From: an uncultured Bacillota bacterium
GTDB taxonomy: Bacteria > Bacillota > DTU025 > MWDF01
DNA length: 64,000 bases
Direction: 5' to 3'
Assembly: GCA_963823655.1 (NCBI GenBank)
Contig: CAWGMK010000013.1
Coordinates: forward strand, 266,964-330,963
Shown here: positions 6,621-64,000 of the stretch, piece after piece
Position numbering within the stretch: position 1 is the stretch's first letter
How the letters are laid out: the number at the start of each line of letters is the position of its first letter
Translations under genes and position numbers: made by a program
The notes under the pieces: generated by a model
Told to the model about the DNA's origin: nothing
The model's input: the letters and a program-made list of their open reading frames with translations, nothing else
Databases searched by the model: none

Positions 6621-9600
6621 TTGGGTAAAGTCAGAGTTTTCGAGCTTTCGAAGTTGGTGAACATACCTAGCAAGGACCTCGTCGACCTCTTGAACAAGTT
6701 GGGCGTTCCTACGGCCAACCACATGAGCGCAATAGACGAGAACGCGGCGAAGTATGTGCTTAGGAAATACGGCCCCGATGCCGAAAAGGAGAAGGCAGCG
6801 CCTGCGAAGCAGAAGGCCAAGCAGAAGCCGCAGCCTAAACCGGCAGCATCCCAGGAGCCGCAGGCCGAGGCGAATATGTCCATAAGAGGCCCGCTTCCTA
6901 ACCAGTCGAGGCTTCAGAGAAATATACCACAGCCTCAGCAGAGGCCCCAGATCCAGGCTAAACCCCTTCCGGGCCAGGCGCCCAGGGCAGCGGCTCTACA
7001 GCTGGCAGCAGCAAGGCTGCAGCAGGCTCAGGAGGAGCAGAAAGCCCTTGAGGCAAGACTTGCCATAGAAAGGGCGGAGGCTGAGAAGCTGGCAGCCGAA
7101 AGAGCGGCAGTGGAGGCTGAAGAGGCGAGGAAGGCCGAAGCCGCACTGAAAGCCGAAGCCGAGCTCGAAGAGAAGAAGAAGGCAGCCGATGCCCGCCACG
7201 AGGCCAAGAAGGCAAAATCGCACAAGAAGGACGAGGAAGCCCCGGTACTTGAGGCTACTGAGCCCAAGGTTGAAACAAAGGAGCCTCAGGCAGAAGCAAC
7301 CGCACCAAAGCCGGAGCCCGCAGTAATCATCGCGGAAGAGGTTATTGAGAAGGCAGGCAGAGGCAGCACCAGTTGAGGAGCCCAAGGCACCGGTAGAACC
7401 GGCGCTTGTAATAAGCGCGCCTAAGCCGGCACCTCAGGTTCAGCCGCAACCTACGGCAGTCCCTTCGCCAAGGCCCCAGGTTGCAGCCCCTACGACGGGT
7501 GCTTACCCGCAGAGGCCGCAAGGAGTCGGTACCGGCACTGCAACTTACAGGAACCAGCCGGGAGTTGGCACAGGCACCGCAACTTACAGGAACCAGCCCG
7601 GCGTTGGCACAGGCACCGCCACTTACAGGAACCAGCCGGGCGTTGGCACAGGTACTGCAACTTACAGGAACCAGCCCGGAGTTGGCACCGGCACCGCAAC
7701 TTACAGAAACCAGCCCGGACAGGGTACCGGAACCGCTACGTACAGGCAGAATACCGGCACCGGCAATTTCGCCCCAAGGCCTCAGGGAACGGGAAACTTC
7801 GCACCCAGGCCTCAGGGCACAGGCACGTTCGGTCCGAGGCCGCAGGGAGGCACCGGCGGTTTTGCTCCCAGAAGGCCGCAGACGGGTGCGGGTATAACAG
7901 TCCCGCCGCCCGCAACAGAGGCGCCCATCAGCAAAGGCAAGGGCAAATCATGGGGCAATACTGGCAAAGAGAGGCGCTTTACTTCCGAGGATGACAATAT
8001 GCGCGGTCCTATCAAGGGCAAGGCCGCTCCGATAAAGAAGGGCAAGAAGGGCATGGGCCCCGATTCAATTCTCGACAAGAACCTCAGGAATGTGGACGTC
8101 GAGATGCTCGATGAGGACGGCAATGTAGTTCGCAAGTCGATCAAGAGAAGAGAGAAGGCCGTCAAAACTAAGAGGATCATCATCGAGCCTGTGATGACAG
8201 TAAGGGATCTGGCTTTGAAGATGGAAGTAACGCCGGGGGATCTCATAAGAAAGCTTATGTCTCTCGGGGTCATGTCCGGCATAAACCAGACTATAGACAG
8301 CGATACGGCCCAGATAGTCGCGTCGGAGTTCGGAATCGACACAGAGCTCAAATCGGAGGCTGATGTCAGGGAGACATCCCTTACCAAGCTTGAGGACAAG
8401 CCGGAGATGCTTAAAACCAGGCCCCCCGTGATAACGATAATGGGCCATGTCGACCACGGCAAGACCACTCTGCTGGACGCAATCAGGAAGACCAATGTGG
8501 CAGCAGGTGAAGCCGGCGGCATAACCCAGGCGATAGGCGCCTACCAGGTGGAACTGAATGGCAGGAAGATCACTTTCATAGATACACCGGGACATGCGGC
8601 CTTCACTTCGATGAGGGCAAGAGGCGCCCAGGTAACGGACATTGTCGTACTTGTAGTTGCAGCCGACGACGGCGTGATGCCGCAGACCAGGGAGGCCTAC
8701 AACCACGCCAGATCCGCAGGAGTGCCGATCATTGTCGCAGTAAACAAGATCGACAGGCCGAACGCCCAGCCGGACAGGGTGCTTCAGGAGCTCTCCGAAT
8801 TGGGCCTTATATCTGAGAAGTGGGGCGGAGATACGGTAACTGTCGAAGTCTCGGCCATTCAGAAGAGGGGCATCAGCGAACTGCTTGAAATGATCCTTCT
8901 TGTAGCCGATATGAAGGACCTGAAGGCGAACCCGGACAGGCCGGCCCAGGGAATAGTAATCGAGGCCGAGAACAAGGCCGGGCTGGGCCCGTTGGCCACC
9001 GTCATAATCAAGAACGGTACGCTCAAGAGGGGCCAATACTGCCTGGCAGGCGAGGTGTCCGGACGCGTAAGGGCTCTTATAAACGAGAAGGGCGAGAGGC
9101 TGGACGAAGCCGGCCCGTCCACACCGGTGCAAGTCGTTGGGCTTTCAGCGGTACCGCACGGAGGGGATCCCTTCGATGTGGTCACCGATGAGCGAGAGGC
9201 CAAGGCGGTCGCCCAGAGAAGGGCCGACATCAGAAGGTCAAGCGAGCTTGTCGAGGAGAAGAAGCCCATAACGCTTGAGGACTTCTTCGCTCAAAAGGAA
9301 TTCGGAGTCGTAAAGGACCTCAATATAATCCTGAAGGCGGACGTACAAGGCTCTGTGGAGGCCGTAAAGAAGTCGCTTGAGGAGCTCTCCAACGCCGAAG
9401 TCAGGGTAGTGGTCGTGCACAGCGGCGTAGGCGCAGTCTCCGAAAACGACGTCATGCTAGCATCTACTTCGGACTCGATAATCATCGCGTTCAATGTCAG
9501 GCCGGACAGCATAGCAGCCAAAGAAGCCGATGAAGTCGGCGTAGACATAAAGAGCTACAGGATAATCTACGAAGCAATCAATGACGTGGCTTTGGCAATG

Positions 9601-12519: not shown

Positions 12520-13285
12520 TATGAATGCAATAGCGCTCGGGACATTCGACGGCGTGCATATCGCCCACAGGATGCTCATCAAACAGGCACTTGCCGCGAA
12601 ATCTGGCGGCAAGGTCATAGCCGTTACCTTCGACAGGATCCCGGGTTCGATGTTCGGAAAAGACGGCAAGATGCGGCAGATTGTAGATTGCCAGGACAAG
12701 CTGCGCCTTTTGTATAACGCAGGGGCCGAGGAAGTGAAGCTTCTGGCCTTTGACGAGAAGCTCTACTCAATGAGCCCGGAGGCCTTCTTCGAAGAGATCA
12801 TTGTAGGACGTTATGGCGCCGGGCTGCTGGCTGTCGGCCATGATTACAGGTTCGGCAGGGGAGGCAAAGGAGACGTAGACCTTCTTCAGAGGCTCTGTAT
12901 AGAACAAGGCGTGCAGCTTCTGGTGCTCGGGGAGATGTCCATGGGGGATATCAGGATTTCGAGCTCGGAGATCAGGCGCAGGATAGCCTCCGGGCAGTCC
13001 TTGGAAGCCGCCGAAATGCTGGGCAGGGTGCATTCTTTCAAAGCCGTCGGAAGCGGCGGTTCCTATCTCGTGGATGAGGAGCTTGCGCTGCCGCCCGCAG
13101 GGATGAAGTTCAAAACCGCAGTATTCGACGATTTGCCCGATTTCGCAAGCTTCGATGAATACGATTCCATATTTTGGTTGGAGCAATCCCGGGACGGATA
13201 TGTAATCAGGCTTCAGGGCAATGCTCCGATCCGGGGCAAAAGGGAGATCTATTTGCTCTTCGGCCCTCGGGCCGGCCAGGTTTAA
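12506..13285 (+). CDS. ribF: FAD synthetase / riboflavin kinase RibF-like. The C-terminal kinase part is short or divergent
   Basis: N-terminal FAD synthetase motif [12 protein letters not shown] and the conserved truB-ribF-rpsO order. Confidence 0.7.
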
Positions 13286-15993: not shown

Positions 15994-16041
15994 TAACAAG
16001 TACTTCAGCGCGAAAGGACCATGACAATACGGAGGTGCCTT

Positions 16042-17124
16042 ATGAGCAACGCAGGAAGAGGCCCGATTACCGTACTTGCTGTAAATCCGGGCTCGACTTC
16101 AACCAAGGCGGCCGTCTTCACTGACGGCAAGCTGTCGGAATCATTCAGCATAGAGCATGACAAAGCGGTCCTTGATTCGCTGGGGGCAATCAAGGACCAG
16201 CTCACATACAGACTGGATGGTATAAGAGCCGCCCTTGTCCACGACGCCGGATGCCTTGACGGGCTGAGCGCAGTAGTGGGAAGGGGCGGCCTTCTCAAAC
16301 CTATGGAGGGCGGGGTGTATGAGGTCGGCCTCAAAATGGTCGAAGATGCCCTGGAGCGCCCCATGGCGCAGCATGCGGCAAATCTCGGCTGTGCGCTTGC
16401 CTTCAACCTTGCAAAGGAGCACGGTGTGCCCGCCTATATAGTGGATGCCGTCTGTACGGACGAGTACGAGCCCGAAGCCCGCATATCGGGGCTTCCCGCG
16501 GTGCCCAGGATATCCTTCCTGCACGCCCTCTCTGCGAGGGCATCTGCCAGAAGGGCCGCCTCCGAGCTCGGCCTGGCCTTCGAAAAGGCGAGCTTCGTCG
16601 TAGCGCACATGGGAGGCGGGACCACAATCTGCTCGGTCAGGGGCGGAAGGCTAATCGATGCCAACAACTCAAATGACGAAGGACCTTTCACACCTGAAAG
16701 GACCGGCACTCTGCCGGCTGGCTCGGTTGTGGATATTTGTTATTCGGGCAAGTACACTAAGCAGCAGCTAAGAGACATATTCCTTCGCAAAAGCGGCCTG
16801 TTCGGATATACCGGCACCAATGACGCCAGGGAGATAATCAAAAGGATTGAGGCCGGCGACGAGAAGGCGAGGGAAGTCATGTCAGCCATGGCATACCAGA
16901 CAGCAAAAGAGATAGGCGCCTATGCCGCGGTCCTTTCCGGGAAACAGGACGCGGTCGTGCTGACCGGAGGCCTTGCTAACTGGTCCATGTTCGTCCAGGA
17001 GCTTACAGGATACATTTCATTTTTAGGCAAAATCCTTGTGTATCCGGGAGAGAATGAGATGCAGGCGCTTGGCGAAGGCGCAACGCTTGCCGTAATGGGC
17101 AAAGTGCCCGTGAAGAAATACTGA
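16042..17124 (+). CDS. buk: Butyrate (branched-chain fatty acid) kinase
   Basis: VLAVNPGSTSTKAAVF N-terminus and acetate/butyrate kinase family fold; RBS acggaggtg. Confidence 0.85.
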   Translation: MSNAGRGPITVLAVNPGSTSTKAAVFTDGKLSESFSIEHDKAVLDSLGAIKDQLTYRLDGIRAALVHDAGCLDGLSAVVGRGGLLKPMEGGVYEVGLKMVEDALERPMAQHAANLGCALAFNLAKEHGVPAYIVDAVCTDEYEPEARISGLPAVPRISFLHALSARASARRAASELGLAFEKASFVVAHMGGGTTICSVRGGRLIDANNSNDEGPFTPERTGTLPAGSVVDICYSGKYTKQQLRDIFLRKSGLFGYTGTNDAREIIKRIEAGDEKAREVMSAMAYQTAKEIGAYAAVLSGKQDAVVLTGGLANWSMFVQELTGYISFLGKILVYPGENEMQALGEGATLAVMGKVPVKKY

Positions 17125-17140
17125 TGAGGGGGGCTTTGGG

Positions 17141-18048
17141 ATGCTGAATACCTTCCAGCAGATTATCGATGAGGCAAAAAGGGGCGGCAAACAGCGAATA
17201 GCGATAGCCGCCGCAAATGACGCCGATGTCCTGGAGGCTGTCAAAATGGCGATGGAAATCGGGCTTGCCGATTTCACGCTGTTCGGGGACCTGGCCTCCA
17301 TTAGGCAGACTGGCAAAGGAAGTCGGGCTGAGCCTTAAAGATGTAGAGATAGTCGACGAACCAATCCTTACAACCGCCGCGCTCAAAGCCGTGCAGCATG
17401 TCAGCTCCGGCAAGGCAGGAACCCTTATGAAGGGCCTAATAGGCACGTCCGATTTTCTAAGGGCAGTGCTCGACAAGGAAGTGGGCCTCCGGACAGGAAA
17501 CCTCCTATCCCATGTGGCCGTCATCAAATCGTGCCAGGTTCGACAGGTTCTTCTACCTTACCGACGGGGGCATGAACATATCGCCCACGCTCGAGCAGAA
17601 GGTACAGATAATCGGAAACGCCGTTAAAGTGGCCCATGCGCTGGGCAATCCGGAACCAAAGGTGGCCTGCATATCAGCGGTGGAGATTGTAAATCCCGAC
17701 ATTGCGGCCACGATGGATGCCGCACTTCTCGCGAAGATGAGCGACAGGAAACAGATCAAAGGCTGCATAGTCGACGGCCCGTTCGGCCTGGATAATGCGG
17801 TTTCAGCTGAAGCGGCCAAACATAAGGGGGTAACAGGCCCTGTGGCCGGCCAGGCTGAGATTCTGATGTGCCCCGACATTAACACGGGAAATGTGATCTA
17901 CAAGGCCCTGAGCTACTTCGCCGACATCGAATGCGGCGCAATGATCGCGGGGGCAAGGGCCCCGATAGTGCTCACCAGCAGGGCCGATTCGCCCAGGACC
18001 AAGCTTTTATCGATGGCGACTGCAGCAGCTGTTGCCCGCAACTCCTGA
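17141..18048 (+). pseudogene. ptb: Phosphate butyryltransferase, interrupted by two frame changes (about 17300 and 17535)
   Basis: Three consecutive ORFs in different frames each match successive parts of Ptb (RIAIAAANDADVLEAV.. / ..SSGKAGTLMKGLIGTSDFLRAVL..LSHVAV / ..FYLTDGGMNISPTLEQK..). Confidence 0.7.
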
Positions 18049-18070
18049 AAGTAAATCAAGGAGGTTCAAA

Positions 18071-19138
18071 ATGAGGCTCCTTATAATTAACCCCGGCTCG
18101 ACTTCAACAAAGGTTGCCCTTTTCGAAGGCCTGAGCCAGACGGCGGCCGAGACTCTGAGGCATTCCCCGGAGCAGCTTTCCCCATACCCAACCATAGCCG
18201 ACCAGCTCGATTTCAGGGCTGCCGAGGTCAGCGATTTCCTCATGGCCCAGGGCAACCCTCCTTTGGACGCAGTAATGGGAAGAGGCGGTCTGCTCCCACC
18301 AATGCCAAGCGGTGTCTATGAGGTTGATGATGCCCTCATGGAGAAGCTGCTGCATCCTTCAGGCCAGCATGCATCCAACCTCGGGGGACTGATCGCAAAG
18401 AAGATCGCCGCCGAGAGGGGCATCCGTGCTTTCATTGCGGACAGCGTAACCACGGATGAGCTCTGCCCTCTGGCGAGATATTCGGGAAGCCCCCTAATTC
18501 AGAGGGTCAGCATCTTCCATGCGCTCAACCAGAAATCCATAGCAAGGCACGCCGCAAAGGACATGGGCAGGCCTTATGAGGAACTGAACCTGATAGTCTG
18601 CCACTTAGGAGGCGGCGTAAGCGTCGGAGCCCATCACAATGGAAGGGTAGTAGACGTAAACAACGCGCTGGACGGCGACGGGCCGTTAGCCCCCGAAAGG
18701 GCAGGAACCTTACCTTTAAACGGCCTTTTAGACCTCTGCTATTCCGGGCAGTACACGCACTCCCAGGCAAGGAAGCTGCTAACTGGCGGCGGGGGTTTCG
18801 TAGCCCATTTGAGCACCAATTCGGGGACCAAGCTCGAAGAGATGGTTGCCGCGGGGGATAAGAAGGCTGAGCTCATCGAAAAAGCCTTCGCGTACACCCT
18901 GGCCAAAGAAGTGGGCCGCATGGCCGCCGTCTTGAAAGGTAAAGTCGACGCAATCATAATTACCGGCGGACTGGCCCATTCCGAGAGGATATGTTCTATG
19001 ATAAAAGAGATGGTGGGAGCCTTCGGGGAAGTGAAATGCTACCCCGGGGAGGATGAGATGAAAGCCTTGGCCGAGGCCGGCGAAAGGGTGCTCGGCTCTG
19101 CCCGCCAAATGCCACCGAAAGGAGGTCAGCCTTGTTGA
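18071..19138 (+). CDS. buk2: Butyrate kinase paralog
   Basis: MRLLIINPGSTSTKVALF. RBS aaggagg; second acetate/butyrate-kinase family member. Confidence 0.85.
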   Translation: MRLLIINPGSTSTKVALFEGLSQTAAETLRHSPEQLSPYPTIADQLDFRAAEVSDFLMAQGNPPLDAVMGRGGLLPPMPSGVYEVDDALMEKLLHPSGQHASNLGGLIAKKIAAERGIRAFIADSVTTDELCPLARYSGSPLIQRVSIFHALNQKSIARHAAKDMGRPYEELNLIVCHLGGGVSVGAHHNGRVVDVNNALDGDGPLAPERAGTLPLNGLLDLCYSGQYTHSQARKLLTGGGGFVAHLSTNSGTKLEEMVAAGDKKAELIEKAFAYTLAKEVGRMAAVLKGKVDAIIITGGLAHSERICSMIKEMVGAFGEVKCYPGEDEMKALAEAGERVLGSARQMPPKGGQPC

Positions 19139-19341
19139 AGAAAGTCGTAATCGACATCGAACGCTGCAAGGGGTGCGAACTTTGCGTAAGGTACTGCCCC
19201 AAGGATGCCCTGGCAATTGATGAGACAACCAATTCGAAGGGATACCTTCCTGCCTTCCTCAAAGACGAGGAAGCGTGCATAAGCTGCGGAATTTGCGGGA
19301 AGATGTGCCCGGATTCCGCAATCGAAGTATTCAAGCCCTAG
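19132..19341 (+). CDS. vorD: 2-oxoacid:ferredoxin oxidoreductase delta subunit (2x[4Fe-4S] ferredoxin)
   Basis: CKGCELCVRYCP and CISCGICGKMCP cluster motifs. TTG start overlapping the buk2 stop. Confidence 0.8.
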   Translation: MLKKVVIDIERCKGCELCVRYCPKDALAIDETTNSKGYLPAFLKDEEACISCGICGKMCPDSAIEVFKP

Positions 19342-19368
19342 CGCAGTAAACTTAAGGAGGCATTTGAA

Positions 19369-20436
19369 GTGTCTGAGAAGAAGCTTTTCAAGGGCAATGA
19401 GGCCGTAGGCGAAGCCGCCATAAGGGCCGGCTGCCGCTATTTCTTCGGCTATCCCATAACTCCTCAGAACGAGATACCGGAATATATGTCCAGGAGGCTG
19501 CCTGAAGTGGGCGGCTGTTTCCTGCAGGCGGAAAGCGAAGTTGCCGCAATAAACATGGTATACGGCGCCGCTGCCGCAGGGGCAAGGGTCATGACCTCGT
19601 CATCGAGCCCGGGCATCTCATTGAAGATGGAGGGCATATCCTATATAGCAGGCTCTCTGCTGTCGCCGCTGATCGTCAACATGGTCCGCGGAGGACCGGG
19701 GCTTGGCGACATACAGCCATCTCAAAGCGACTATTTCCAGGCCACCAAAGGAGGCGGGCATGGGGACTACAAGCTGATTGTATTCACCCCCGCAAGCATA
19801 CAGGAGATGGTGGACCTGATATACATATCCTTCGAGACGGGTGAGAAGTACCTTATGCCGGTCATGATACTTGCCGACGGAGTGCTCGGCCAGATGATGG
19901 AATCGGTGGAGTTCCCCGAGATGAAGGAGCCTAATGATCCCAATTCCAGTTCATTTGCCATTACCGGGGCTGCAGGAAGGCCAGCGAGGGTTGTCAAGGC
20001 CTTCGACCTGGATCCCGAGAAGATGTATCAGCTGAACATGGAGATGGCGGAGAGAAACAAGCTTGTAGAGAAGAATGAGACAAGGGTAGAAGAATACATG
20101 ATGGACGATGCCGAGTTCGCGCTTGTGGCATACGGCACCTCAAGCAGGATATGCCGCTCGGCTGTGGATAAGGCGAGGGCCGAAGGGCTGAAGCTTGGGC
20201 TTATCAGGCCGATAACGGTCTGGCCGTTCCCTTACGAGACGATAAGGAAAGCAGCCTCAAAGGTAAAGGGGTTCCTGGTAGTCGAGATGAGCCTGGGCCA
20301 ATTCATAGAGGACGTCAGGCTCGCGGTAGAGGGAAAGAAGCCCGTCGCGCTGCACGCAATACCTGGAGGCCTCATCCCCAAGAGGGACGAAGTGCTTGCG
20401 CAGGTACATGGCATACTTGACGGGAAGGGGGTTTGA
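19369..20436 (+). CDS. vorA: 2-oxoacid (2-ketoisovalerate/2-oxoglutarate):ferredoxin oxidoreductase alpha subunit
   Basis: KGNEAVGEAAIRAGCRYFFGYPITPQNEI N-terminus typical of the KorA/VorA family. Confidence 0.85.
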   Translation: MSEKKLFKGNEAVGEAAIRAGCRYFFGYPITPQNEIPEYMSRRLPEVGGCFLQAESEVAAINMVYGAAAAGARVMTSSSSPGISLKMEGISYIAGSLLSPLIVNMVRGGPGLGDIQPSQSDYFQATKGGGHGDYKLIVFTPASIQEMVDLIYISFETGEKYLMPVMILADGVLGQMMESVEFPEMKEPNDPNSSSFAITGAAGRPARVVKAFDLDPEKMYQLNMEMAERNKLVEKNETRVEEYMMDDAEFALVAYGTSSRICRSAVDKARAEGLKLGLIRPITVWPFPYETIRKAASKVKGFLVVEMSLGQFIEDVRLAVEGKKPVALHAIPGGLIPKRDEVLAQVHGILDGKGV

Positions 20437-21185
20437 GCATGCAGGAGGTCTACAGGACAGCCAAGTCACTGACGAAAGCAACTATGCACTACTGCCCGGG
20501 TTGCACACATGGCATAATTCATAAGCTGGTGGCGGAGTCAATCGACGAGCTCGGTATTAGGGAGAAGACTATAGGCGTTGCCCCGGTGGGTTGCGCTGTG
20601 CTCGCCTACCAGTACATAGATACGGACTTCGCAGTAGCGGCCCACGGCAGGGCGCCTGCCATGGCCACAGGCATCAAAAGGGTGCACCCCGACAAGATCG
20701 TATTCACATATCAAGGTGACGGAGACCTAGCGTCCATTGGCACGGCTGAGATCGTCCATGCCGCGATGAGGGGCGAGAAGATAACGGTAATTTTCGTAAA
20801 CAACGCGATTTACGGCATGACGGGAGGACAGATGGCGCCGACCACGCTAGTTGGGCAGAAGACCAGCACATCTCCCTACGGCAGGCAGGTCGAGCACTGC
20901 GGCAGCCCCATAAGGATGTCGGAGCTTCTTGCAACGATACCCGGAGCCTACTATGTCACAAGAGTATCGGTTACAACGCCCGCGGGCCTTGCAAAGGCCA
21001 AGCGTGCAATCAAGAGGGCATTCCAAAACCAGATCGACGGCAAGGGGCTGAGCATTGTAGAAGTGCTCTCCACATGTCCTACGAACTGGGGCAGGGCGCC
21101 TTTTGAGTCCATGCGCTGGGTAGACGAGAACATGGCCCCCTATTTTCCGCTAGGAGACTACAAGACGGCGGAGGAGGCGAAATAG
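20433..21185 (+). CDS. vorB: 2-oxoacid:ferredoxin oxidoreductase beta subunit (TPP-binding)
   Basis: HYCPGCTHGI and GDGD TPP-binding motifs. Confidence 0.85.
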   Translation: MSMQEVYRTAKSLTKATMHYCPGCTHGIIHKLVAESIDELGIREKTIGVAPVGCAVLAYQYIDTDFAVAAHGRAPAMATGIKRVHPDKIVFTYQGDGDLASIGTAEIVHAAMRGEKITVIFVNNAIYGMTGGQMAPTTLVGQKTSTSPYGRQVEHCGSPIRMSELLATIPGAYYVTRVSVTTPAGLAKAKRAIKRAFQNQIDGKGLSIVEVLSTCPTNWGRAPFESMRWVDENMAPYFPLGDYKTAEEAK

Positions 21186-21722
21186 ATGCAAAAGGAGTAT
21201 ATTCTGTCGGGTTTCGGCGGCCAGGGATTGATGCTGGCAGGCATGCTTCTGTCCGAAGCCGGCATGCTAGAGGGCAAGAACGTTTCCTGGATACCCTCAT
21301 ACGGCCCCGAGATGAGAGGCGGCACCGCAAACTGCGCCGTAGTCGTCTCAGAGGAGCCCATAGGTTCCCCCATAGTGGATAATCCCGACGTGGTAGTAGC
21401 AATGAACCTGCCGTCCATGGACAAGTTCGAGCCCGCAATAAAGAAGGGCGGCATCATGGTGTATAACTCAAGCCTTATAAAAAGGCCTCCTGCCAGGAAA
21501 GATATCACCTATATAGCAGCGCCCGCCAACGAGATCGCTGAGGCTCTGGGAAACGAGAAAGTCGCCAACATGGCGATGCTAGGAGCTATGTTTGCGGGAG
21601 ATAAATGGGTGAAGGCCGAGTCTTTGGAGAAAGTCCTGTACAAGAAGATGACAGGTGCCAAGGCAAAGCTTATCCCGCTAAATATCGAGGCGATAAAGAG
21701 GGGTGCCGAGGCCTATAAATAG
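21186..21722 (+). CDS. vorC: 2-oxoacid:ferredoxin oxidoreductase gamma subunit
   Basis: ILSGFGGQGLMLAG..PSYGPEMRGGTANC motif. Confidence 0.85.
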   Translation: MQKEYILSGFGGQGLMLAGMLLSEAGMLEGKNVSWIPSYGPEMRGGTANCAVVVSEEPIGSPIVDNPDVVVAMNLPSMDKFEPAIKKGGIMVYNSSLIKRPPARKDITYIAAPANEIAEALGNEKVANMAMLGAMFAGDKWVKAESLEKVLYKKMTGAKAKLIPLNIEAIKRGAEAYK

Positions 21723-33415: not shown

Positions 33416-34059
33416 AGCTGTTCATCGACACGGCCAATTTAGAGGAGATCCTCACTGTCGACAGTATGGGCATCATCTGCGGCGTAACTACTAACCCCAC
33501 GCTTATAGCGCGCGAAGGCCATGACCCCGACACAATGGCAATGAAGATAGCCGAGTCGGTCAGTGGCCCCGTCAGCTATGAGGCCGTATCCTTCGATGCC
33601 GAGGGCATAGTCAGGGAGGGCCGGGCGATAGCTGCCATGGCTCCCAATATGGTCGTCAAGGTCCCGCTCACAATAGAGGGCCTTAAGGCAATAAAGACCT
33701 TGTCGCAGTACGGCATCAGGACAAACGCCACCCTCATTTTCAATGAGAACCAGGCATTGCTTGCGGCACGCGCAGGGGCCACATATGTAAGCCTTTTCAT
33801 CGGCAGGCTTGTCGACAAGGGAGTCGACGCCATGGCCATCGTACGCAATACCAGGAGCATATTAGATATGAACGACCTGGATGCGGAGATTATTGCCGCA
33901 TCCATCAGAAATACGGAACAGGTGACGCAGTGCGCGCTTGCCGGCTCGCACATTGCCACTGTGCCCTACAAGATCCTTATGGAAATGGTCGAGCACCCCA
34001 TGACTACGGCTGGCATAGAGAAGTTCATGGATGACTGGAAGAAGGTCTTCGGCAAGTAG
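33412..34059 (+). CDS. tal: Transaldolase / fructose-6-phosphate aldolase family protein (short form)
   Basis: MKLFIDTANLEEI..GVTTNPTLIA motif. Confidence 0.85.
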   Translation: MKLFIDTANLEEILTVDSMGIICGVTTNPTLIAREGHDPDTMAMKIAESVSGPVSYEAVSFDAEGIVREGRAIAAMAPNMVVKVPLTIEGLKAIKTLSQYGIRTNATLIFNENQALLAARAGATYVSLFIGRLVDKGVDAMAIVRNTRSILDMNDLDAEIIAASIRNTEQVTQCALAGSHIATVPYKILMEMVEHPMTTAGIEKFMDDWKKVFGK

Positions 34060-36107
34060 TGGAGATCATTGTCGCAAAAACTGCAGGCTTCTGTGCCGGC
34101 GTCAGGCGGGCGGTCGACATCGCCCTCACTGCTTCTTCAAAAGCGCCTGATGAAGGCTGCAAAGACTGCGTTTCTATAGGGCCTCTGATCCACAATGAGG
34201 ACATGGTACGCGAGCTTGAAAGCAAAGGCGTCCATGTGATAGCTGACATCGACGAAGTGTCAGGCAGGCCCTTGATCATCCCGTCGCACGGCACCAGCAA
34301 AATGGTATCTGTGCATGCAGAGGAACTTGGTTTGCGCATAATCGACGCAACGTGCCCGCATGTCATAAAGCTCAAGCAGTTGGCAATTGAATGGGAACAG
34401 GCAGGCGGGGTCGCCGTAATTGCAGGCGATAAAGGGCATCCGGAGCTCAAAGGGGTAGCCTCATATCTTAATGATCCGATAATCGGCAACGACACAGGCG
34501 AGCTAATGAAAGAGATGGCGGCCCTCCCGGGAAGGCGATTCCTTTTGCTTTCGCAGACAACCGGAATTGCCGAAGATATGGATGCCATGTACGCCACCAT
34601 GAAGGCGGCGGGAATTGATGTAGAATACTGCCGCACGGTCTGCCCTGCCACGCAGCAAAGACAAGCCGAGGTAAGGGCTCTGGCAAATGACACTGATGCT
34701 ATGATAGTCCTCGGCGGCAGAAAGAGCGCAAACACCAACAGGCTTGAGCAAATTGCGAAAAACTCAGGAAAACCTGTATATAGAGCGGCAAATCTGTCAG
34801 AATTGAATTTGGGCGAAATTAAGTCCGCAGGTTTTAGGAAACTTGGCATAACTGCAGGGGCATCGACCCCAAACAGCATTATCGAGGAGGTCGTCAGAGC
34901 AATGATTGAATCCGGCGCAGAGAAAGAGCTCACAATGGCAGAGCTGGAGAAGCTCTATCCCGAGAAAAAAGAAGAAGTCCAGGCAGCACCGAAGAAGAAG
35001 GATCTGCAGGTAGTAACGGGCAAGGTGACGCTTGTTACGGAAGATGAGGTGCTGGCGGACGTGGGGCAGGGCTCGGATGTGCACATACCGAAGAACCAGC
35101 TCACCTTCTCAAAGGCTGTATCACCGCTGAAGATGTTCCAGCTGGGCGATCCCATTACCGTTGCAATAGAGGAGTATGATGCCACCAAGGACGTGCAGTA
35201 CGCCTCCAAGCTGAAGGCAGATGCATTGACCGCATGGCAGAAGGCTCAGGACGCTTTCGAATCCGGCGAGGCCATAGAAGGCGTAATAGTCGAAGCCGTA
35301 AAAGGCGGAGTGGTAGTGGACATGGGTATTAGGGGCTTCATGCCCGCCTCCCAGATAGGGTCCAGGGTTGAGGACCTCAACACACTAATCGGCACCAAGG
35401 TCAAGGCAAAGGTCATAGAGCTGGAGGAATCAAGGAAGGGCGCAGTGCTATCCACCCGCGCGCTTGCCGAGTCGGAAAATGCCAAGCAAAGGCAGGAGAA
35501 TATCGACAAGGTACAGGTAGATGCCATATTCGAAGGCACCGTAAGGAAGCTTATGCCCTTTGGAGCATTCGTCAACCTGCTGCCCGGAATAGACGGCCTG
35601 CTGCACGTATCCGAACTCTCCTGGCAGAGGATCGGCAACCCCTCCGAAGTGCTGAGCGAAGGCATGAAAGTTCAAGTGAAAGTAATCTCAGTGGATAGCG
35701 CCAGGGGGAAAATTTCGCTGAGCATGAAACAGTTGAGCGAGAGGCCTCGTTCTAAGACAGTGACGGCCGATTTGTCGGAAGGCGCTGTATATAAGGGAAC
35801 AGTAGTGAAGCTGATGAACTTCGGCGCATTCGTGAAGATGGAAAACGGCGCCGAGGGCCTCGTGCACGTCTCCCAGATCTCGGAGAAGAGGGTGCAGACC
35901 CCGGACGAGATCCTATCGGTAGGCCAGGAAGTCAAGGTGAAAGTCCTGTCAGTAAACGAGGAGAACGGACGTATCAGCTTATCGATAAAAGACGCTGAGC
36001 TCAAAGAGCAGAGGGACGAATTCGAAGGCTATATGAAATCCGCCGAGGAAGACTTCCAGATTACGATAGCCGACAGGATAAGAATCAAAGGTGAACAGAA
36101 GCGTTAA
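34059..36107 (+). CDS. ispH-rpsA: Bifunctional 4-hydroxy-3-methylbut-2-enyl diphosphate reductase (IspH) / 30S ribosomal protein S1 fusion
   Basis: N-terminal IspH (AGFCAGVRRAV..HNEDMV..ATCPHV) followed by four S1 repeats. GTG start. Confidence 0.85.
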   Translation: MEIIVAKTAGFCAGVRRAVDIALTASSKAPDEGCKDCVSIGPLIHNEDMVRELESKGVHVIADIDEVSGRPLIIPSHGTSKMVSVHAEELGLRIIDATCPHVIKLKQLAIEWEQAGGVAVIAGDKGHPELKGVASYLNDPIIGNDTGELMKEMAALPGRRFLLLSQTTGIAEDMDAMYATMKAAGIDVEYCRTVCPATQQRQAEVRALANDTDAMIVLGGRKSANTNRLEQIAKNSGKPVYRAANLSELNLGEIKSAGFRKLGITAGASTPNSIIEEVVRAMIESGAEKELTMAELEKLYPEKKEEVQAAPKKKDLQVVTGKVTLVTEDEVLADVGQGSDVHIPKNQLTFSKAVSPLKMFQLGDPITVAIEEYDATKDVQYASKLKADALTAWQKAQDAFESGEAIEGVIVEAVKGGVVVDMGIRGFMPASQIGSRVEDLNTLIGTKVKAKVIELEESRKGAVLSTRALAESENAKQRQENIDKVQVDAIFEGTVRKLMPFGAFVNLLPGIDGLLHVSELSWQRIGNPSEVLSEGMKVQVKVISVDSARGKISLSMKQLSERPRSKTVTADLSEGAVYKGTVVKLMNFGAFVKMENGAEGLVHVSQISEKRVQTPDEILSVGQEVKVKVLSVNEENGRISLSIKDAELKEQRDEFEGYMKSAEEDFQITIADRIRIKGEQKR

Positions 36108-36181: not shown

Positions 36182-37085
36182 ATGGAGAAGAGCGTGAAGA
36201 AGTCCTATATCATTCTGGCAGCGATTGTTGCCGTCGTAGTCATCGCAGCTGCGGCATGGATCATTTTCAACAAGTCTACAGCGATAGCGATCGTCAACGG
36301 CGAGAGGATAACCAGGAAAGAGTTCCTCGATAAGATGGAGAGCCAGGCAGGCATGCAGATCCTCCAGGAGATGATCAATGCGAAGCTGGTAGCCCAGGAA
36401 GCTGCGAAGGCCGGCATCGAAGTGACCACCGAGAGGGTAGACGAAGAAATGGTGAAGATCAAGGAGAACCTCGGCGACCAGTACGATTACATGCTCAGCA
36501 TGTATGGCATGACTGAAGACAGCCTGAGGAAGACCCTTGAGCAGAACCTGCTTGCTTACGAGATATCGACGAAGGATATCGTAGTCACGGATGAGCAGAT
36601 TGCCACCGACTACACCGAGAATAAGGATATGTATCTCGAGCCGGCTCAGGTAAAGGCAAGCCACATACTAGTTCGTACGAAGGAAGAGGCCCAGGCTATC
36701 CTAGATGAGCTCAAGGGCGGCGCCGATTTCGTAGAGCTGGCGAAGTCCAAGTCCATAGACACAGGCACCGCTGAGGCGGGTGGCGACCTTGGTTTCTTCG
36801 GCAGCCGGTGAAATGACCGAGGTATTTGAAAATGCAGCCTTCGCGCTGGCAGTAGGGCAGCTTTCAGGCATTGTTGAGTCCGAGTACGGCTTCCACGTGA
36901 TCTTGTGCACAGACAAGAAGGCCGAGTTCATGCCGACGCTCGAAGAAGCCCGCGAAGCCGTTATCGAGAAGATAAAGGGCGAGCAGGCAAAGAACATCGA
37001 CACGCTGCTTCTCGAGATCAAGGACAAGTCGACTGTGACAGTAACCGACGAGAAATATAACAGCCTCGCGGTTTCTACCCAGTAG
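36182..37085 (+). CDS. prsA: Membrane-anchored parvulin-type peptidyl-prolyl isomerase (PrsA-like), with a frame change near 36805
   Basis: N-terminal TM segment, SurA-like domain, and a PpiC core (ASHILV..GGDLGFF / ..FALAVGQLSGIVESEYGFHVI) split across two frames. Confidence 0.7.
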
Positions 37086-42691: not shown

Positions 42692-42736
42692 GTTTACGTA
42701 CATATTATTATGTCAACTTGGCGGTTATAGAATAAT

Positions 42737-42811
42737 GGCAGGGGAGACAGGACTTGAACCCGCAACCCTCGGTTTTGGAGACCGATGCTCTGCCAGTTGA
42801 GCTACTCCCCT
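42737..42811 (-). tRNA. tRNA-Trp (anticodon CCA)
   Basis: The reverse complement folds as a cloverleaf: AGGGGAG acceptor, anticodon loop cuCCAaa, T-arm GGGTTCAAGTCC, 3' CCA encoded. Confidence 0.85.
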
Positions 42812-42904
42812 GCGATGGCATATTTGCTTGCAATATGTATTCTACCTAGTATAAGTCTTAGTGTCAATTCGATAACTCATTATAAGTGCATGGAGGTAGA
42901 CAAA

Positions 42905-43483
42905 ATGGATGAGTTCAAGGTACCGGTAGGAATATCCAACAGGCATCTTCACCTGAGCGAGGCGGATCTTCATACTCTTTTCGGAGATGGATCTTGCTTG
43001 ACCGTAAAGAAGCCGCTTTCACAGAAGGGGCAATACGCCTGTGAGGAGCTAGTTACTATAGTAGGACCCAAGGGAAGCCTCAGCAATGTTAGGGTTCTCG
43101 GACCTACAAGGAAGCAGACCCAGGTGGAAGTCTCCAATACAGACGCAAGAGGGCTGGGCCTTGAGCCACCGGTAAGGGACAGCGCAGATCTTGCAGGAAG
43201 CGCGTCCGTAAAGCTTGTAGGGCCCAAGGGCGAGCTTACGTTGCCAGAGGGTTGCATCATTGCCAAGCGCCACATCCATATAAACGACGAAGATGCAGCA
43301 AAGCTTGGCTTGAAGGACAGACAGCTAGTTAAGGCAAAGGTCGCCGGCAACCGTGGGCTGGTCTTTGATGAAGTTCTAATCAGGGTGCATCCGACATTCG
43401 TGCTCGAAATGCACTTGGATACGGATGAGGCTAATGCATGCTCTTTGAAGAACGGCGAGACAGTCACCCTTATAACAGGCTAA
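42905..43483 (+). CDS. pduL: PduL/EutD-type phosphate propanoyl/acyl-transferase
   Basis: PVGISNRHLHLSEADL and a second ..IIAKRHIHIN repeat, characteristic of the PduL family. Confidence 0.75.
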   Translation: MDEFKVPVGISNRHLHLSEADLHTLFGDGSCLTVKKPLSQKGQYACEELVTIVGPKGSLSNVRVLGPTRKQTQVEVSNTDARGLGLEPPVRDSADLAGSASVKLVGPKGELTLPEGCIIAKRHIHINDEDAAKLGLKDRQLVKAKVAGNRGLVFDEVLIRVHPTFVLEMHLDTDEANACSLKNGETVTLITG

Positions 43484-44820: not shown

Positions 44821-45436
44821 ATGCAGAGCCTTAACGATAGAGAAGCAAGGATACTTAACTTCATATGCAATGAGGCTTCCGAAAAGGGCTTCCCCCCATC
44901 CGTAAGGGAGATTTGCGCAGCTGTAGGTCTGAAGTCCACCTCGACTGTACATGGCTATCTAAATGCCCTTGAGAAGAAGGGCTTTATAAAGAGGGATTTG
45001 ACCAAGCCTCGGGCTATAGATGTCCTTCAGAATTCCAGCGATTCGCAGAATATGAGAAGGATAGCGAAAAGCGTCCCGCTCATCGGCGCCGTTACTGCGG
45101 GCCTCCCTATCCTGGCGACGGAGAACATTACCGACTATATTCCCCTGCCTAAGGAATGGGTCGGTGAGGACAAGGTCTTCATGTTGAAGTGTTAAAGGCG
45201 ACAGCATGATCAATGCAGGCATATTCGATTCCGATATGCTGGTGGTTAGAAGCCAGTCGGACGCCGAGAACGGCGACATCGTCGTGGCTATGATTGAAGA
45301 CGAAGCAACGGTCAAACGCATGTACAAATCCAAAGGGCGCATCGAACTGCATCCGGAAAACCCATCCTATAGCGTGATAATCTCGGATTCAACCCAAGTA
45401 TTGGGCAAGGTAATAGGCCTTATGAGGAAAATATAA
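44821..45436 (+). CDS. lexA: LexA repressor (apparent 1-nt insertion at about 45190, between the DNA-binding and peptidase domains)
   Basis: N-terminal wHTH (ARILNFICNEASEKGFPPSVREI). The S24 peptidase region (VKGDSMINAGI..VLGKVIGLMRKI) is in the next frame. Confidence 0.8.
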
Positions 45437-46624: not shown

Positions 46625-46701
46625 CGAGGTGTAGCGCAGTTTGGTAGCGCGCTTGGTTCGGGACCAAGAGGCCCCGGGTTCAAGTCCCGGCACCTCGACC
46701 A
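46625..46701 (+). tRNA. tRNA-Pro (anticodon CGG)
   Basis: Cloverleaf: acceptor CGAGGUG/CACCUCG, anticodon loop uuCGGga, T-arm GGGTTCAAGTCCC, 3' CCA. Confidence 0.85.
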
Positions 46702-46707
46702 ATTTTT

Positions 46708-46793
46708 GCGAGAGTGGCGGAACGGCAGACGCACCAGACTTAGGATCTGGCGGGGTGACTCGTGCGGGTTCAAGTCCCGCCTCTCGCACCAAT
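46708..46793 (+). tRNA. tRNA-Leu (anticodon TAG), long variable arm
   Basis: 86 nt, type II tRNA; anticodon loop cuUAGga; T-arm GGGTTCAAGTCCC; 3' CCA. Confidence 0.8.
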
Positions 46794-47866: not shown

Positions 47867-47944
47867 TGGTCGGAGCGGGGAGACTTGAACTCCCGACCTC
47901 TTGCACCCCAAGCAAGCGCGCTAGCCAAACTGCGCCACGCCCCG
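47867..47944 (-). tRNA. tRNA-Pro (anticodon GGG)
   Basis: The reverse complement has acceptor CGGGGCG/CGCTCCG, anticodon loop uuGGGgu, T-arm GGGAGTTCAAGTCTCCC and CCA. Confidence 0.8.
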
Positions 47945-61529: not shown

Positions 61530-62207
61530 TCAGATTATCATCGCCGCCAGGGCCGCGATTAATAGCGCGGGCAGCATATTGCTCGCCTTGATCCCGGCTT
61601 TCAGCGCCAGGTTCATGCTAAGTCCCATCAGTATCAGGCCTCCTGCGGCCGTTATGTGCGCAATCATGGCCTCCGTCATGAGATGTCCGATAGAGCCCGC
61701 GGCAAGTGTGATACCGCCCTGCACTATGAATACTACAATCGCTGAGAAGCCCACGCCGATGCCCATGGTAGACGCGAGCGCCATCGAGCTTACCCCGTCC
61801 ATCACCGATTTCATGGCGAGAATCGAATAGTCTCCCCTGAGTCCGTCGGCGATAGAGCCCATCACTGTCATCGGGCCTATACAAAACAGCAGCGAGGCGG
61901 CCATAAGCCCTTCGGTGAACCTTCCCTCGCCAAGCTTTCCCAGCTTCGATTTCGCAATGTCCCCGAGGCCGTTGAGCCTTTCATCGAACTTGAGGACCAT
62001 ACCGAATATCGTGCCGAGCACCACGCAAATCAAGGTCACAAGCAGGTCCGGGGAGGAGCCTGCGTTCTTCAGGCCTATTACAAGCGTGAAAAGCCCCATC
62101 ACCCTTATGAGCTCGGAGCCGAATTGATCGGGGATCCTCCTTCTTAGAAGGATGCCGATAGCGGTGCCTGCGAGCACAGTGCCCGTATTCATGAGAGTCC
62201 CTATCAT
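61530..62207 (-). CDS. DUF554-family integral membrane protein (YqgA-like)
   Basis: Multi-TM hydrophobic profile and DUF554-like conserved segments. Confidence 0.6.
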   Translation of the reverse strand: MIGTLMNTGTVLAGTAIGILLRRRIPDQFGSELIRVMGLFTLVIGLKNAGSSPDLLVTLICVVLGTIFGMVLKFDERLNGLGDIAKSKLGKLGEGRFTEGLMAASLLFCIGPMTVMGSIADGLRGDYSILAMKSVMDGVSSMALASTMGIGVGFSAIVVFIVQGGITLAAGSIGHLMTEAMIAHITAAGGLILMGLSMNLALKAGIKASNMLPALLIAALAAMII

Positions 62208-62385
62208 CTGGCACCTCATTCCGGTGGAAATCTTACCTAATAATTATATCATCTAGCTTCCTGCTCTTTAAGGGCGAACAAAAACGATAAAGTAAGCGTC
62301 AACAGTTGTAGTTTGAGCGATTTGCCCGCATTACGATAATTTGTTAAAATACTTGTGATTTATTATACGAAAGGAGGAACCAACA

Positions 62386-62806
62386 TTGAAGAAGATTCTA
62401 GTAGTAGCTTTCGTACTAGCACTCGTCGCGGTGGTTTCCCTTGCAGTCTACGCAGCGGTACCCACACTAACCGTACCAGGCGTGAATGCCAAGGACGATC
62501 TGCCCAAAGGTTGCGTGGATTGCCACGTCAAGTCCGGTAGCACCGATATCGACGATCCTGGCCGGCATGAAGAAGCTCATCGCCGCAGGCACGCATCCCA
62601 AGGCCCCGGATACCATGGTAGACGAGCTCAAGGACTGCTACGGCTGCCACAAGGCGGGAGCCGCGGCCGGAACCGTAGGTACTGTAGTCCATGTATCGCA
62701 CTTCACCGGCGCCAACAACGCATTCGTGAAGGCTTACAGCGGCAACTGCACCTGGTGCCACAGCGTCGACCTCACAAAGGGTGTCGTCGGAGTCAAGGGC
62801 AAGTAA
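62386..62806 (+). CDS. Small secreted c-type cytochrome with three CxxCH haem-binding motifs (frame change near 62545)
   Basis: TTG start with RBS aaggagga; signal peptide MKKILVVAFVLALVAVVSLAVYA. Motifs CVDCH, CYGCH and CTWCH span the 62386 and 62486 frames. Confidence 0.6.
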
Positions 62807-62825
62807 CTAGCGTCGCATAAAGATT

Positions 62826-62858
62826 GGAGGGCGGTTTTCCGCCCTCCATTTTCTTTGT
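62826..62858. terminator. Bidirectional rho-independent terminator between convergent genes
   Basis: ggagggcgg-ttttcc-gccctcc hairpin followed by attttctttgt. Confidence 0.7.
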
Positions 62859-62883: not shown

Positions 62884-64000
62884 CTACGGTGTGACGGGAA
62901 GGAATATCGCAACGACGCCCACTATGATTCCCAGCACGCCCAGTATCAGGCCGGTTATCCCAAGGCCCTTGATCTTCTTCATCTCCGCTTGCATGCTCTG
63001 ATTCTGCTCCGCAAGCTGGCCCTCAAGGGACTTTATCTGGCTGTTGAGCTTGGCTTCCCTCTCCTGGGCCTGTATGTCTATGTCGTCCTTCTGGTCGATT
63101 GACGCCTTCTCCAGGTCCTTGAGCTTGGCATCGGTCTTCACTTGCATATCGGCAAGCTTCGCCTCAAGAGTCTCCTGCTTTATCTTCAGCCTGTTAAGAT
63201 CGTCGCTCACTAACACCAGGAGCTTCGTCGTCGACTCGAGGTTGGATTTGAGAACATCAACCGAAGTCTCCAGCCTGGTAAGCCTGGACTCGATTGCCGC
63301 CACCTTCTCTTTAAGCGACGTTATGCTCGCGTTGGCGGTATCCATCGCCACCCTTAAGCCTGCTATCGAGAGGCCCAGCTCCGAATCTGCGTCCTGCAGC
63401 TCGATGGCGTTTCTTACTATCATAGCCTTGGAATCGGAGTCCACCTGGCTTATGGTGGCCTTCAGCTTCGCGATTTCGGACGTGAGCTTAGCATCCGAGT
63501 CAGCCCTTGTAGCCTTTTCCGCGTCGAGCAGCTGGAGCGCATTCTGGTATGATGTGCCCCCTTCCGCCGACAGGGCCGCCTTGAGTGCCGCCGCTTCCGT
63601 CTTTCTCTCCTGCTTCTCGTTCTCAAGTGCTAGCTGCAGGCCTGCCGCCGCCTTCTCTATATCGGCGCCAAGCACTTTGTTCAGCATTTCAAGCCTAGTC
63701 GCGGTAAGGACATCGGCATCGGCCCTGAACCTCGCCTCATCGCTTATCAGACCCTTTAGCGCCTCCACCGCCGATGCCAAATTCCTATCATTTTCTGCAT
63801 CAGTTGAAGCCAGGTTCTTATCGTTTTCTGCGTCGGTTGATGCAAGCATCGCTGACAGGGAATCAAGCTTAGCCGACAGAGAATCAAGCTTTACTTCCAA
63901 AGCCTTCCTGCTGCTGCTCTCGGTCTCGATATAGGCAGAGAGGTTGGTGACGGCCTTGTCGATATCCTGCCCTAACGCGGCCTTTATCGCTTCAATCTCC
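62884..64000 (-). CDS. Coiled-coil, C-terminally tail-anchored protein with internal repeats. The 5' end runs off the window
   Basis: Long heptad-rich Ala/Leu/Lys/Glu/Asp sequence, repeated LASTDAENDKN/LASTDAENDRN, and a C-terminal TM segment GLGITGLILGVLGIIVGVVAIFLPV. The frame stays open to position 64000. Confidence 0.55.
   Translation of the reverse strand, partial: EIEAIKAALGQDIDKAVTNLSAYIETESSSRKALEVKLDSLSAKLDSLSAMLASTDAENDKNLASTDAENDRNLASAVEALKGLISDEARFRADADVLTATRLEMLNKVLGADIEKAAAGLQLALENEKQERKTEAAALKAALSAEGGTSYQNALQLLDAEKATRADSDAKLTSEIAKLKATISQVDSDSKAMIVRNAIELQDADSELGLSIAGLRVAMDTANASITSLKEKVAAIESRLTRLETSVDVLKSNLESTTKLLVLVSDDLNRLKIKQETLEAKLADMQVKTDAKLKDLEKASIDQKDDIDIQAQEREAKLNSQIKSLEGQLAEQNQSMQAEMKKIKGLGITGLILGVLGIIVGVVAIFLPVTP

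Follow-up and report, generated by a model that had tools for sequence, protein, structure and literature searches.

A conserved gene for a small exported cytochrome with three putative haem sites in a Bacillota genome, split by a probable assembly error

The locus and its surroundings

The window (the whole stretch of DNA analysed, 64 kb in length) carries a small gene on the + strand at 62386-62806. The start codon read from the sequence is TTG (62386-62388, + strand). A ribosome-binding site, AAAGGAGGAA, is placed six bases 5′ of the TTG (62370-62379, + strand) and is invariant in a three-way DNA alignment. Upstream of this, a consensus scan located a promoter-like element on the + strand comprising TTGCCC, a 17-nt spacer and a TG-extended TAAAAT (62322-62350), from which the gene would be transcribed. 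The promoter-like TTTGTTAAAATA block is kept at L001 and at L002, the two orthologous loci aligned. A search of Rfam returned no family upstream of the gene. The start position is common to the orthologues, being TTG in L001 and ATG in L002-L007.

The coding sequence is read in two parts, both on the + strand. Codons 1-54 (62386-62547) comprise the TTG start, a signal peptide, a PGVNAKDD motif and the first haem motif, CVDCH (62512-62526). The N-terminus consists of MKK, an 18-residue hydrophobic stretch and VYA followed by A, an arrangement that is kept in the orthologues. The signal peptide MKKILVVAFVLALVAVVSLAVYA (62386-62454) is followed by AV, with putative cleavage after VYA, and the start frame encodes MKKILVVAFVLALVAVVSLAVYA followed by AVPTLTVPGVNAKDDLPKGCVDCHVKSGSTD. 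Codons 55-139 plus a TAA stop (62549-62806) lie in the +1 frame, which is open from 62486, encodes a protein ending in STILAGMKKLIAAGTHPKAPDTMVDELKDCYGCHKAGAAAGTVGTVVHVSHFTGANNAFVKAYSGNCTWCHSVDLTKGVVGVKGK and terminates at 62804-62806. This second part contains the candidate distal histidine His70 (62594-62596), the second haem motif CYGCH (62636-62650), two further candidate distal histidines, His102 (62690-62692) and His105 (62699-62701), and the third haem motif CTWCH (62747-62761). Left uncorrected, the start frame is free of stops up to 62820; its continuation is rich in Arg, Gly and Gln and matched nothing in Pfam.

Downstream, a consensus scan identified a GC-rich hairpin terminator with a 10-bp stem, a 4-nt loop and a T-rich tail on each side (62825-62848, both strands). 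The promoter-like site and the terminator frame a single gene, and the cytochrome unit is thus monocistronic. On the other side, a divergent gene for a DUF554 membrane protein (61530-62207, − strand) was identified by tblastn and Pfam context. Beyond the terminator, a convergent gene (62884-64000, − strand) encodes the C-terminal portion of a long coiled-coil protein that ends in a membrane anchor. This gene is cut by the window end, and the fragment gave no match in Pfam. An earlier note, made from the sequence alone, had described a TTG start with a strong ribosome-binding site and signal peptide, the motifs CVDCH, CYGCH and CTWCH with the last two in the adjacent frame, and a monocistronic gene between a divergent DUF554 gene and a two-strand terminator. 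The coordinates, the orthologue alignment, the consensus scan and the tblastn and Pfam context bear this description out.

The arrangement is conserved. In 14 related loci the DUF554 gene adjoins the cytochrome gene; in a relative with 44-45% identity the two are 4 kb apart. Within the clade, and wherever the contig reaches, the order is DapF-DUF554, the cytochrome gene (opposite strand) and the convergent SLH/coiled-coil gene. The orthologue of the coiled-coil protein in L002 (10523-13363) is 946 aa long and has a weak SLH-domain match; at that locus it is followed by TonB-ExbD-ExbB genes. Together, the predicted SLH protein and the TonB-ExbD-ExbB genes hint at a diderm Firmicutes envelope with a periplasm. 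In the 44-45%-identical relative (L010, 4292-5509; GCA_034926675.1), DUF554 and the cytochrome gene are separated by three genes. These encode an oxidoreductase with Pyr_redox_2 and Rubredoxin_C domains (405 aa), a Peptidase_S8 protein and a 167-aa protein lacking a Pfam match. MiaB-MutS synteny is kept there.

Genes that might supply or use the cytochrome were searched for in the same regions. The conserved gene is an orphan: in 13 related loci no redox partner was found within 10 kb. It is the only ORF in the 64-kb window with at least two CxxCH motifs, and no other CxxCH-rich gene was found nearby in the window, in the clade loci or in the 44-45%-identical relative. No Rnf match was obtained by tblastn in the window or the clade loci, and neither an outer-membrane or surface cytochrome nor a porin was found near the gene in either set. 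Among about 50 window ORFs there was no ResB, CcsA or Ccm Pfam domain and no tryptophan-rich WGxxWxWD motif, which upholds the earlier remark that no ccm, ccs or resBC genes are visible nearby; the scanned loci L001-L009 also lacked both the domains and the motif. Haem synthesis genes were not found either, in the window or up to 10 kb from the gene in related loci.

Titles of related contigs read Firmicutes bacterium ADurb.Bin153, Bacillota bacterium and uncultured Clostridia bacterium, in agreement with the Firmicutes-type label given previously. A literature search for ADurb.Bin153, or for Limnochordia together with multihaem, found nothing specific. The genome had also been called fermentative. 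At 16021-21722, two butyrate-kinase-like genes flank a frameshifted ptb and are followed by genes for a three-subunit 2-oxoacid:ferredoxin oxidoreductase, and a PduL-type phosphotransacylase (phosphate propanoyltransferase) is encoded at 42785-43483. The buk-ptb-buk and oxidoreductase genes sustain that description, and with PduL they are consistent with fermentation. Two other features of the window were recorded. A 682-aa single ORF at 34059-36107 combines an IspH/LytB domain with three S1 RNA-binding domains. Four tRNA genes (42736-42811, 46625-46791 and 47867-47944) comprise Trp-CCA, Pro-CGG, Leu-TAG and Pro-GGG; because the PduL ORF shares sequence with the end of the tRNA-Trp gene, which is on the other strand, its translation probably starts at a later codon.

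The frame break at 62548

The two coding parts are separated by a single extra A at 62548 (GAT-A-TCG, + strand), which causes a +1 shift; in the DNA alignment neither L001 nor L002 has this base. The earlier note had estimated the indel at about 62545, close to the aligned position. Once A62548 is removed, the gene encodes 139 aa with 97-98% identity to P0001, and all three CxxCH motifs fall in one frame, as the note's proposal of a joined frame required. In 14 related loci from MAGs and metagenomes the gene is unbroken in every case, encoding 139-140 aa with 74-97% protein identity. When a protein collection was searched with the joined sequence, seven full-length relatives of 139-151 aa and 74-97% identity were recovered, each in a single frame. 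A search of metagenome contigs for the DNA pattern across this site gave no match, whether the extra base was included or not.

Values of dN/dS among eight orthologues were 0.04-0.29. For the part of the gene past the shift, comparison with the nearest relative, L001, gave dN 0.018 and dS 0.43 (dN/dS about 0.04).

Other genes of the window are broken in the same manner. Splits were called where a Pfam domain was covered in part and the missing part could be read in another frame (three-frame reading). At least 10 single-base frameshifts were counted in the 64 kb, the cytochrome gene included, and nine of them are +1. The sites are 7327-7376, ~17310, ~17551, ~36819, ~40702, ~42125, ~45191, ~56134 and 62548, and the broken genes are infB, ptb (twice), a SurA-like PPIase gene, mgtC, surE, lexA, mutS and the cytochrome gene. 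For infB, the IF2_N domain lies in one ORF and the remainder in the next, with the junction at 7327-7376. The two shifts in ptb are near 17310 and 17551, and the SurA-like PPIase and mgtC genes are split near 36819 and 40702, respectively. In surE, the N-terminal MKVLVSNDDG is read in one frame and profile positions 84-187 in another. In lexA, the sequence reaches FMLK in one frame and resumes with VKGDSM in the next, near 45191. In mutS, the frame changes at about 56134, and the gene is 1 nt shorter there than at nine orthologous loci. A possible further frameshift was noted in ribF, near 13174-13285.

Given the intact relatives, the many other frameshifts in the window and the purifying selection acting past the shift, the break is most probably an assembly or sequencing error, and neither a pseudogene nor a programmed frameshift. 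The data exclude an old pseudogene. A very recent one is conceivable, and much less likely than an assembly error: the 1-nt insertion would then be real and the gene a young pseudogene of this genome, perhaps in a mutS-defective mutator lineage. The insertion is present in the sequence as given, and mutS is itself frameshifted, which could in principle raise indel rates. Indel miscalls are most often associated with homopolymers, and A62548 lies outside any homopolymer. Against this, at least nine further frameshifts fall in housekeeping genes, including the essential infB, a load incompatible with a viable genome; the corrected frame past the shift is under strong purifying selection; and the gene is intact at every related locus. 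We regard a young pseudogene as quite unlikely. A programmed +1 ribosomal frameshift joining the two frames, both of which are open across the junction, was dropped as having next to no probability because the orthologues are read in a single frame lacking the extra base, GAT-A-TCG contains no slippery or stall motif, and many unrelated window genes are broken alike.

The window thus looks like an indel-prone, under-polished assembly, and the indel in the cytochrome gene informs on sequence quality rather than on biology. Pseudogenes or frameshifts seen anywhere in this sequence need to be checked against reads.

Family, predicted structure and relation to known cytochromes

An exhaustive profile search recovered 202 clusters (50% identity) at E ≤ 1e-3, 80 of them at E ≤ 1e-10. 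Members are mostly 125-150 aa long, with some tandem duplications of about 260 aa, and almost all are named "hypothetical protein" in the databases. A lipobox replaces the usual signal peptide in a few distant members. Ten residues (C43, C46, H70, C84, H88, H102, H105, C121, C124, H125) do not vary among 92 aligned members, and two more, H47 and C87, show a conservation of 90% or higher. Exactly three CxxCH motifs are present in 88 of the 92, which supports the earlier description of a small exported protein with three haem c-binding motifs. Beyond the CxxCH motifs there are exactly three further conserved histidines, H70, H102 and H105, invariant in all 92 sequences, and the order of motifs in the family is CxxCH-H-CxxCH-H-x2-H-CxxCH. 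Three CxxCH motifs together with exactly three additional histidines fit three bis-His haems. The locus is a real, conserved gene for a small exported cytochrome with three putative haem sites.

A non-haem Cys/His metal site was considered and dropped, since three additional histidines are invariant, the protein carries an export signal and it is consistently matched by multihaem profiles. One collected sequence, P0008 (152 aa, from a 534-bp contig), has the first 83 cytochrome residues and then part of a DegT/DnrJ-type aminotransferase (PF01041). Rather than a genuine fusion, this probably reflects a short contig that is chimeric or frameshifted.

The earlier note had proposed structure prediction as a way of comparing the protein with c7 and c3 folds. 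An AlphaFold model built from the 92-sequence alignment was confident (pLDDT 92.9), and a model built from the seven close orthologues only was poor (pLDDT 54). A Foldseek search of the PDB with the 92-sequence-based model found no similar solved structure (best E = 5).

By profile score, the protein belongs to no specific curated Pfam or NCBIfam family, the thresholds not being reached, and the NCBIfam matches were all far below their cut-offs. The generic doubled-CXXCH model PF09699, which names no specific family, gave 21.6 bits with the hand-joined sequence against a cut-off of 20.6, and 17.9 bits with P0001. The best and most consistent profile likeness was to the pentahaem domain II/IV of MtrC/MtrF/OmcA/UndA (PF22113), matched by 35/35 members. 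The cut-off of this model is 30 bits; the window protein scored 22.2 bits and its intact orthologue P0001 23.2 bits. The alignment spans profile positions 82-167 of 176, and TIGR03507 was matched over profile positions 577-669 of 672. In both models the matched region is the part with the last three haem motifs. Unlike the MtrC-type proteins, which are ten-haem surface lipoproteins, the window protein is a stand-alone soluble protein, with three haem motifs and not a five-haem domain.

The c7 cytochromes, represented by PpcA of Geobacter (PF14522, NF043011), are likewise small, soluble and signal-peptide-bearing, with three CxxCH motifs and enough histidines for bis-His coordination, and the proposed role as a periplasmic electron carrier is alike. 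The c7 model PF14522 gave 20.4 bits against a cut-off of 24.8, with weak matches in 34/35 members; NF043011 was matched by 1/35 members (E = 1.4e-4); and PpcA appeared at E = 6.9 in the profile search of solved structures. The mature protein has about 115 aa here compared with 71 aa for the PpcA chain. In c7, two distal histidines precede the first CxxCH, and the order CxxCH-H-CxxCH-HxxH-CxxCH found here is unlike that order. Tetrahaem cytochrome c3 (PF02085) was matched at E = 0.38 by the window protein and by 1/35 members; c3 has four motifs and not three.

NapB and NrfB (PF03892, PF22678, NF008659) are also small periplasmic multihaem subunits and gave weak matches over the last two haem motifs. 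The scores were 21.2 bits against a cut-off of 25.1 for NapB and 21.8 bits against a cut-off of 184 for NF008659 (NrfB). Their haem numbers differ (two or five), and no nap or nrf genes were found in the window or the clade loci. Photosynthetic reaction-centre cytochrome subunits and NapB, which made up most of the matches in the profile search of solved structures, were dropped as family assignments since the similarity was at the level of motifs only. In STC/CctA of Shewanella, another small carrier of the periplasm, two CxxCH motifs enclose an HxxH pair. The corresponding pair here, H102-x2-H105, is enclosed in the same way. This resemblance is a lead; STC/CctA has four haems and the window protein three, and it was absent among the 30 solved-structure matches at E ≤ 10 in the profile search.

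On these sub-threshold scores, the motif-level structure matches and the motif order differing from that of c7, the protein may be described as representing a new variant, at family level, among the small soluble multihaem cytochromes and not as a member of the c7, c3, NapB, NrfB or MtrC families.

Genomic contexts and proposed role

Informative gene contexts came from distant members that are 30-40% identical and mostly belong to a different subgroup, marked by a C-terminal NW motif; the contigs of P0036 and P0019 were too short to show context. In CP070696.1, from a Spirochaetaceae bacterium (L031, 10001-15346; member P0157), and in an unrelated metagenome contig (L015, 1530-6765; member P0020), the family member is the first gene of a cyt-rnfCDGEA-Fer2 operon. 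In both, genes of 2Fe-2S thioredoxin-like and NADH-dehydrogenase 51K type then follow. Adjacent, co-oriented rnf genes were found only with these two distant members and not with the window gene. In L011 (8001-12402), and also in L012 and L013, the family member heads a cluster and is followed by three genes, encoding a 474-aa protein that resembles an outer-membrane beta-barrel and lacks a Pfam match and multihaem lipoproteins of 196 aa and 594 aa. From its predicted products, this cluster resembles a porin-cytochrome conduit. A tandem six-haem version adjoins genes for a NapC/NirT-type cytochrome and Sdh/Frd. Taken together, the distant contexts suggest a periplasmic electron carrier that would link membrane redox complexes to acceptors in the envelope. 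Transfer of this function to the window clade is weak, because the contexts come from members of 30-40% identity and mostly of the other subgroup.

Our preferred reading, to which a probability of roughly 0.7 is given, is that the gene encodes a soluble c-type cytochrome from an uncurated family, exported by the Sec route, about 115 residues long and carrying three bis-His haems, and that the frame break is an assembly error. The apoprotein would be exported and its signal peptide cut after VYA. A maturation system with genes elsewhere in the genome would then attach a haem at each of CVDCH, CYGCH and CTWCH, and His70, His102 and His105 would be the sixth ligands. The mature protein would form a short three-haem wire outside the cytoplasmic membrane, passing electrons from a membrane donor to an acceptor in the periplasm or envelope. 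That haem is attached in this lineage is assumed, since no maturation genes lie in the window or nearby in related loci; the strong conservation of the haem-binding residues under purifying selection is an indirect argument for such a system. For the window clade we infer the cellular location and the carrier role, the latter because the gene is an orphan with neither Rnf nor CxxCH-rich neighbours.

The protein might instead be a dedicated electron-transfer subunit of a complex encoded elsewhere, such as Rnf, with DhcA of Desulfovibrio and MmcA of Methanosarcina as precedents, or a periplasmic reductase that it would serve in the manner of NapB or NrfB. MmcA carries seven haems, and no rnf genes lie near the gene in the window or the clade, unlike the situation of dhcA and mmcA. 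Those two genes occupy the same first position as the distant members of the present family in two lineages: dhcA in dhcA-rnfCDGEABF of Desulfovibrio (PMC4215793) and mmcA in mmcA-rnfCDEGAB of Methanosarcina (PMC13013709). DhcA has ten haems compared with three here, and it is dispensable for Rnf-dependent growth in D. alaskensis (PMC4215793), which counts against this reading. The weak NapB and NrfB profile similarities also favour a dedicated subunit, and their scores, far below the curated cut-offs, speak against it. No rnf, nap or nrf genes were found in the window or within 10 kb of the gene in 13 clade loci, and the gene has its own promoter-like site and terminator. A dedicated subunit is rated as improbable. 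The broader proposal, that the three-haem family is a bacterial counterpart of DhcA/MmcA and a periplasmic outlet for ferredoxin-driven Rnf or another membrane donor, is speculative and a little less probable again. If true, electrons from fermentation would pass to the envelope and from there to external acceptors or partners, and the unlinked clade copy would be an electron sink independent of hydrogen or formate for a fermenter producing butyrate or branched-chain acids.

The earlier note had suggested a capacity for extracellular or periplasmic-side electron transfer, which would make the cytochrome the fermenter's route to metals, humics or a syntrophic partner. One distant member does head the cluster of beta-barrel-like protein and two multihaem lipoproteins, and the relatives come from anaerobic digesters, where multihaem cytochromes are reported to be expressed in many phyla and have been proposed as mediators of interspecies electron transfer (PMC7382037). 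A lone three-haem soluble protein, however, cannot span the cell envelope, and its surroundings in the window and the clade loci contain no surface cytochrome, no porin and no further CxxCH-rich gene. Such a route is considered unlikely for this gene.

A Firmicutes lineage of digesters keeps a small three-haem cytochrome under purifying selection despite nearby metabolism that looks purely fermentative. Its retention under selection implies that haem c is made in this lineage and that some redox chemistry takes place outside the cytoplasmic membrane. With 202 clusters and neither a specific model nor a solved structure, the family is a reasonable candidate for a new family of periplasmic electron carriers, and its Rnf and porin-cytochrome-like links in other lineages are the part of it worth following.
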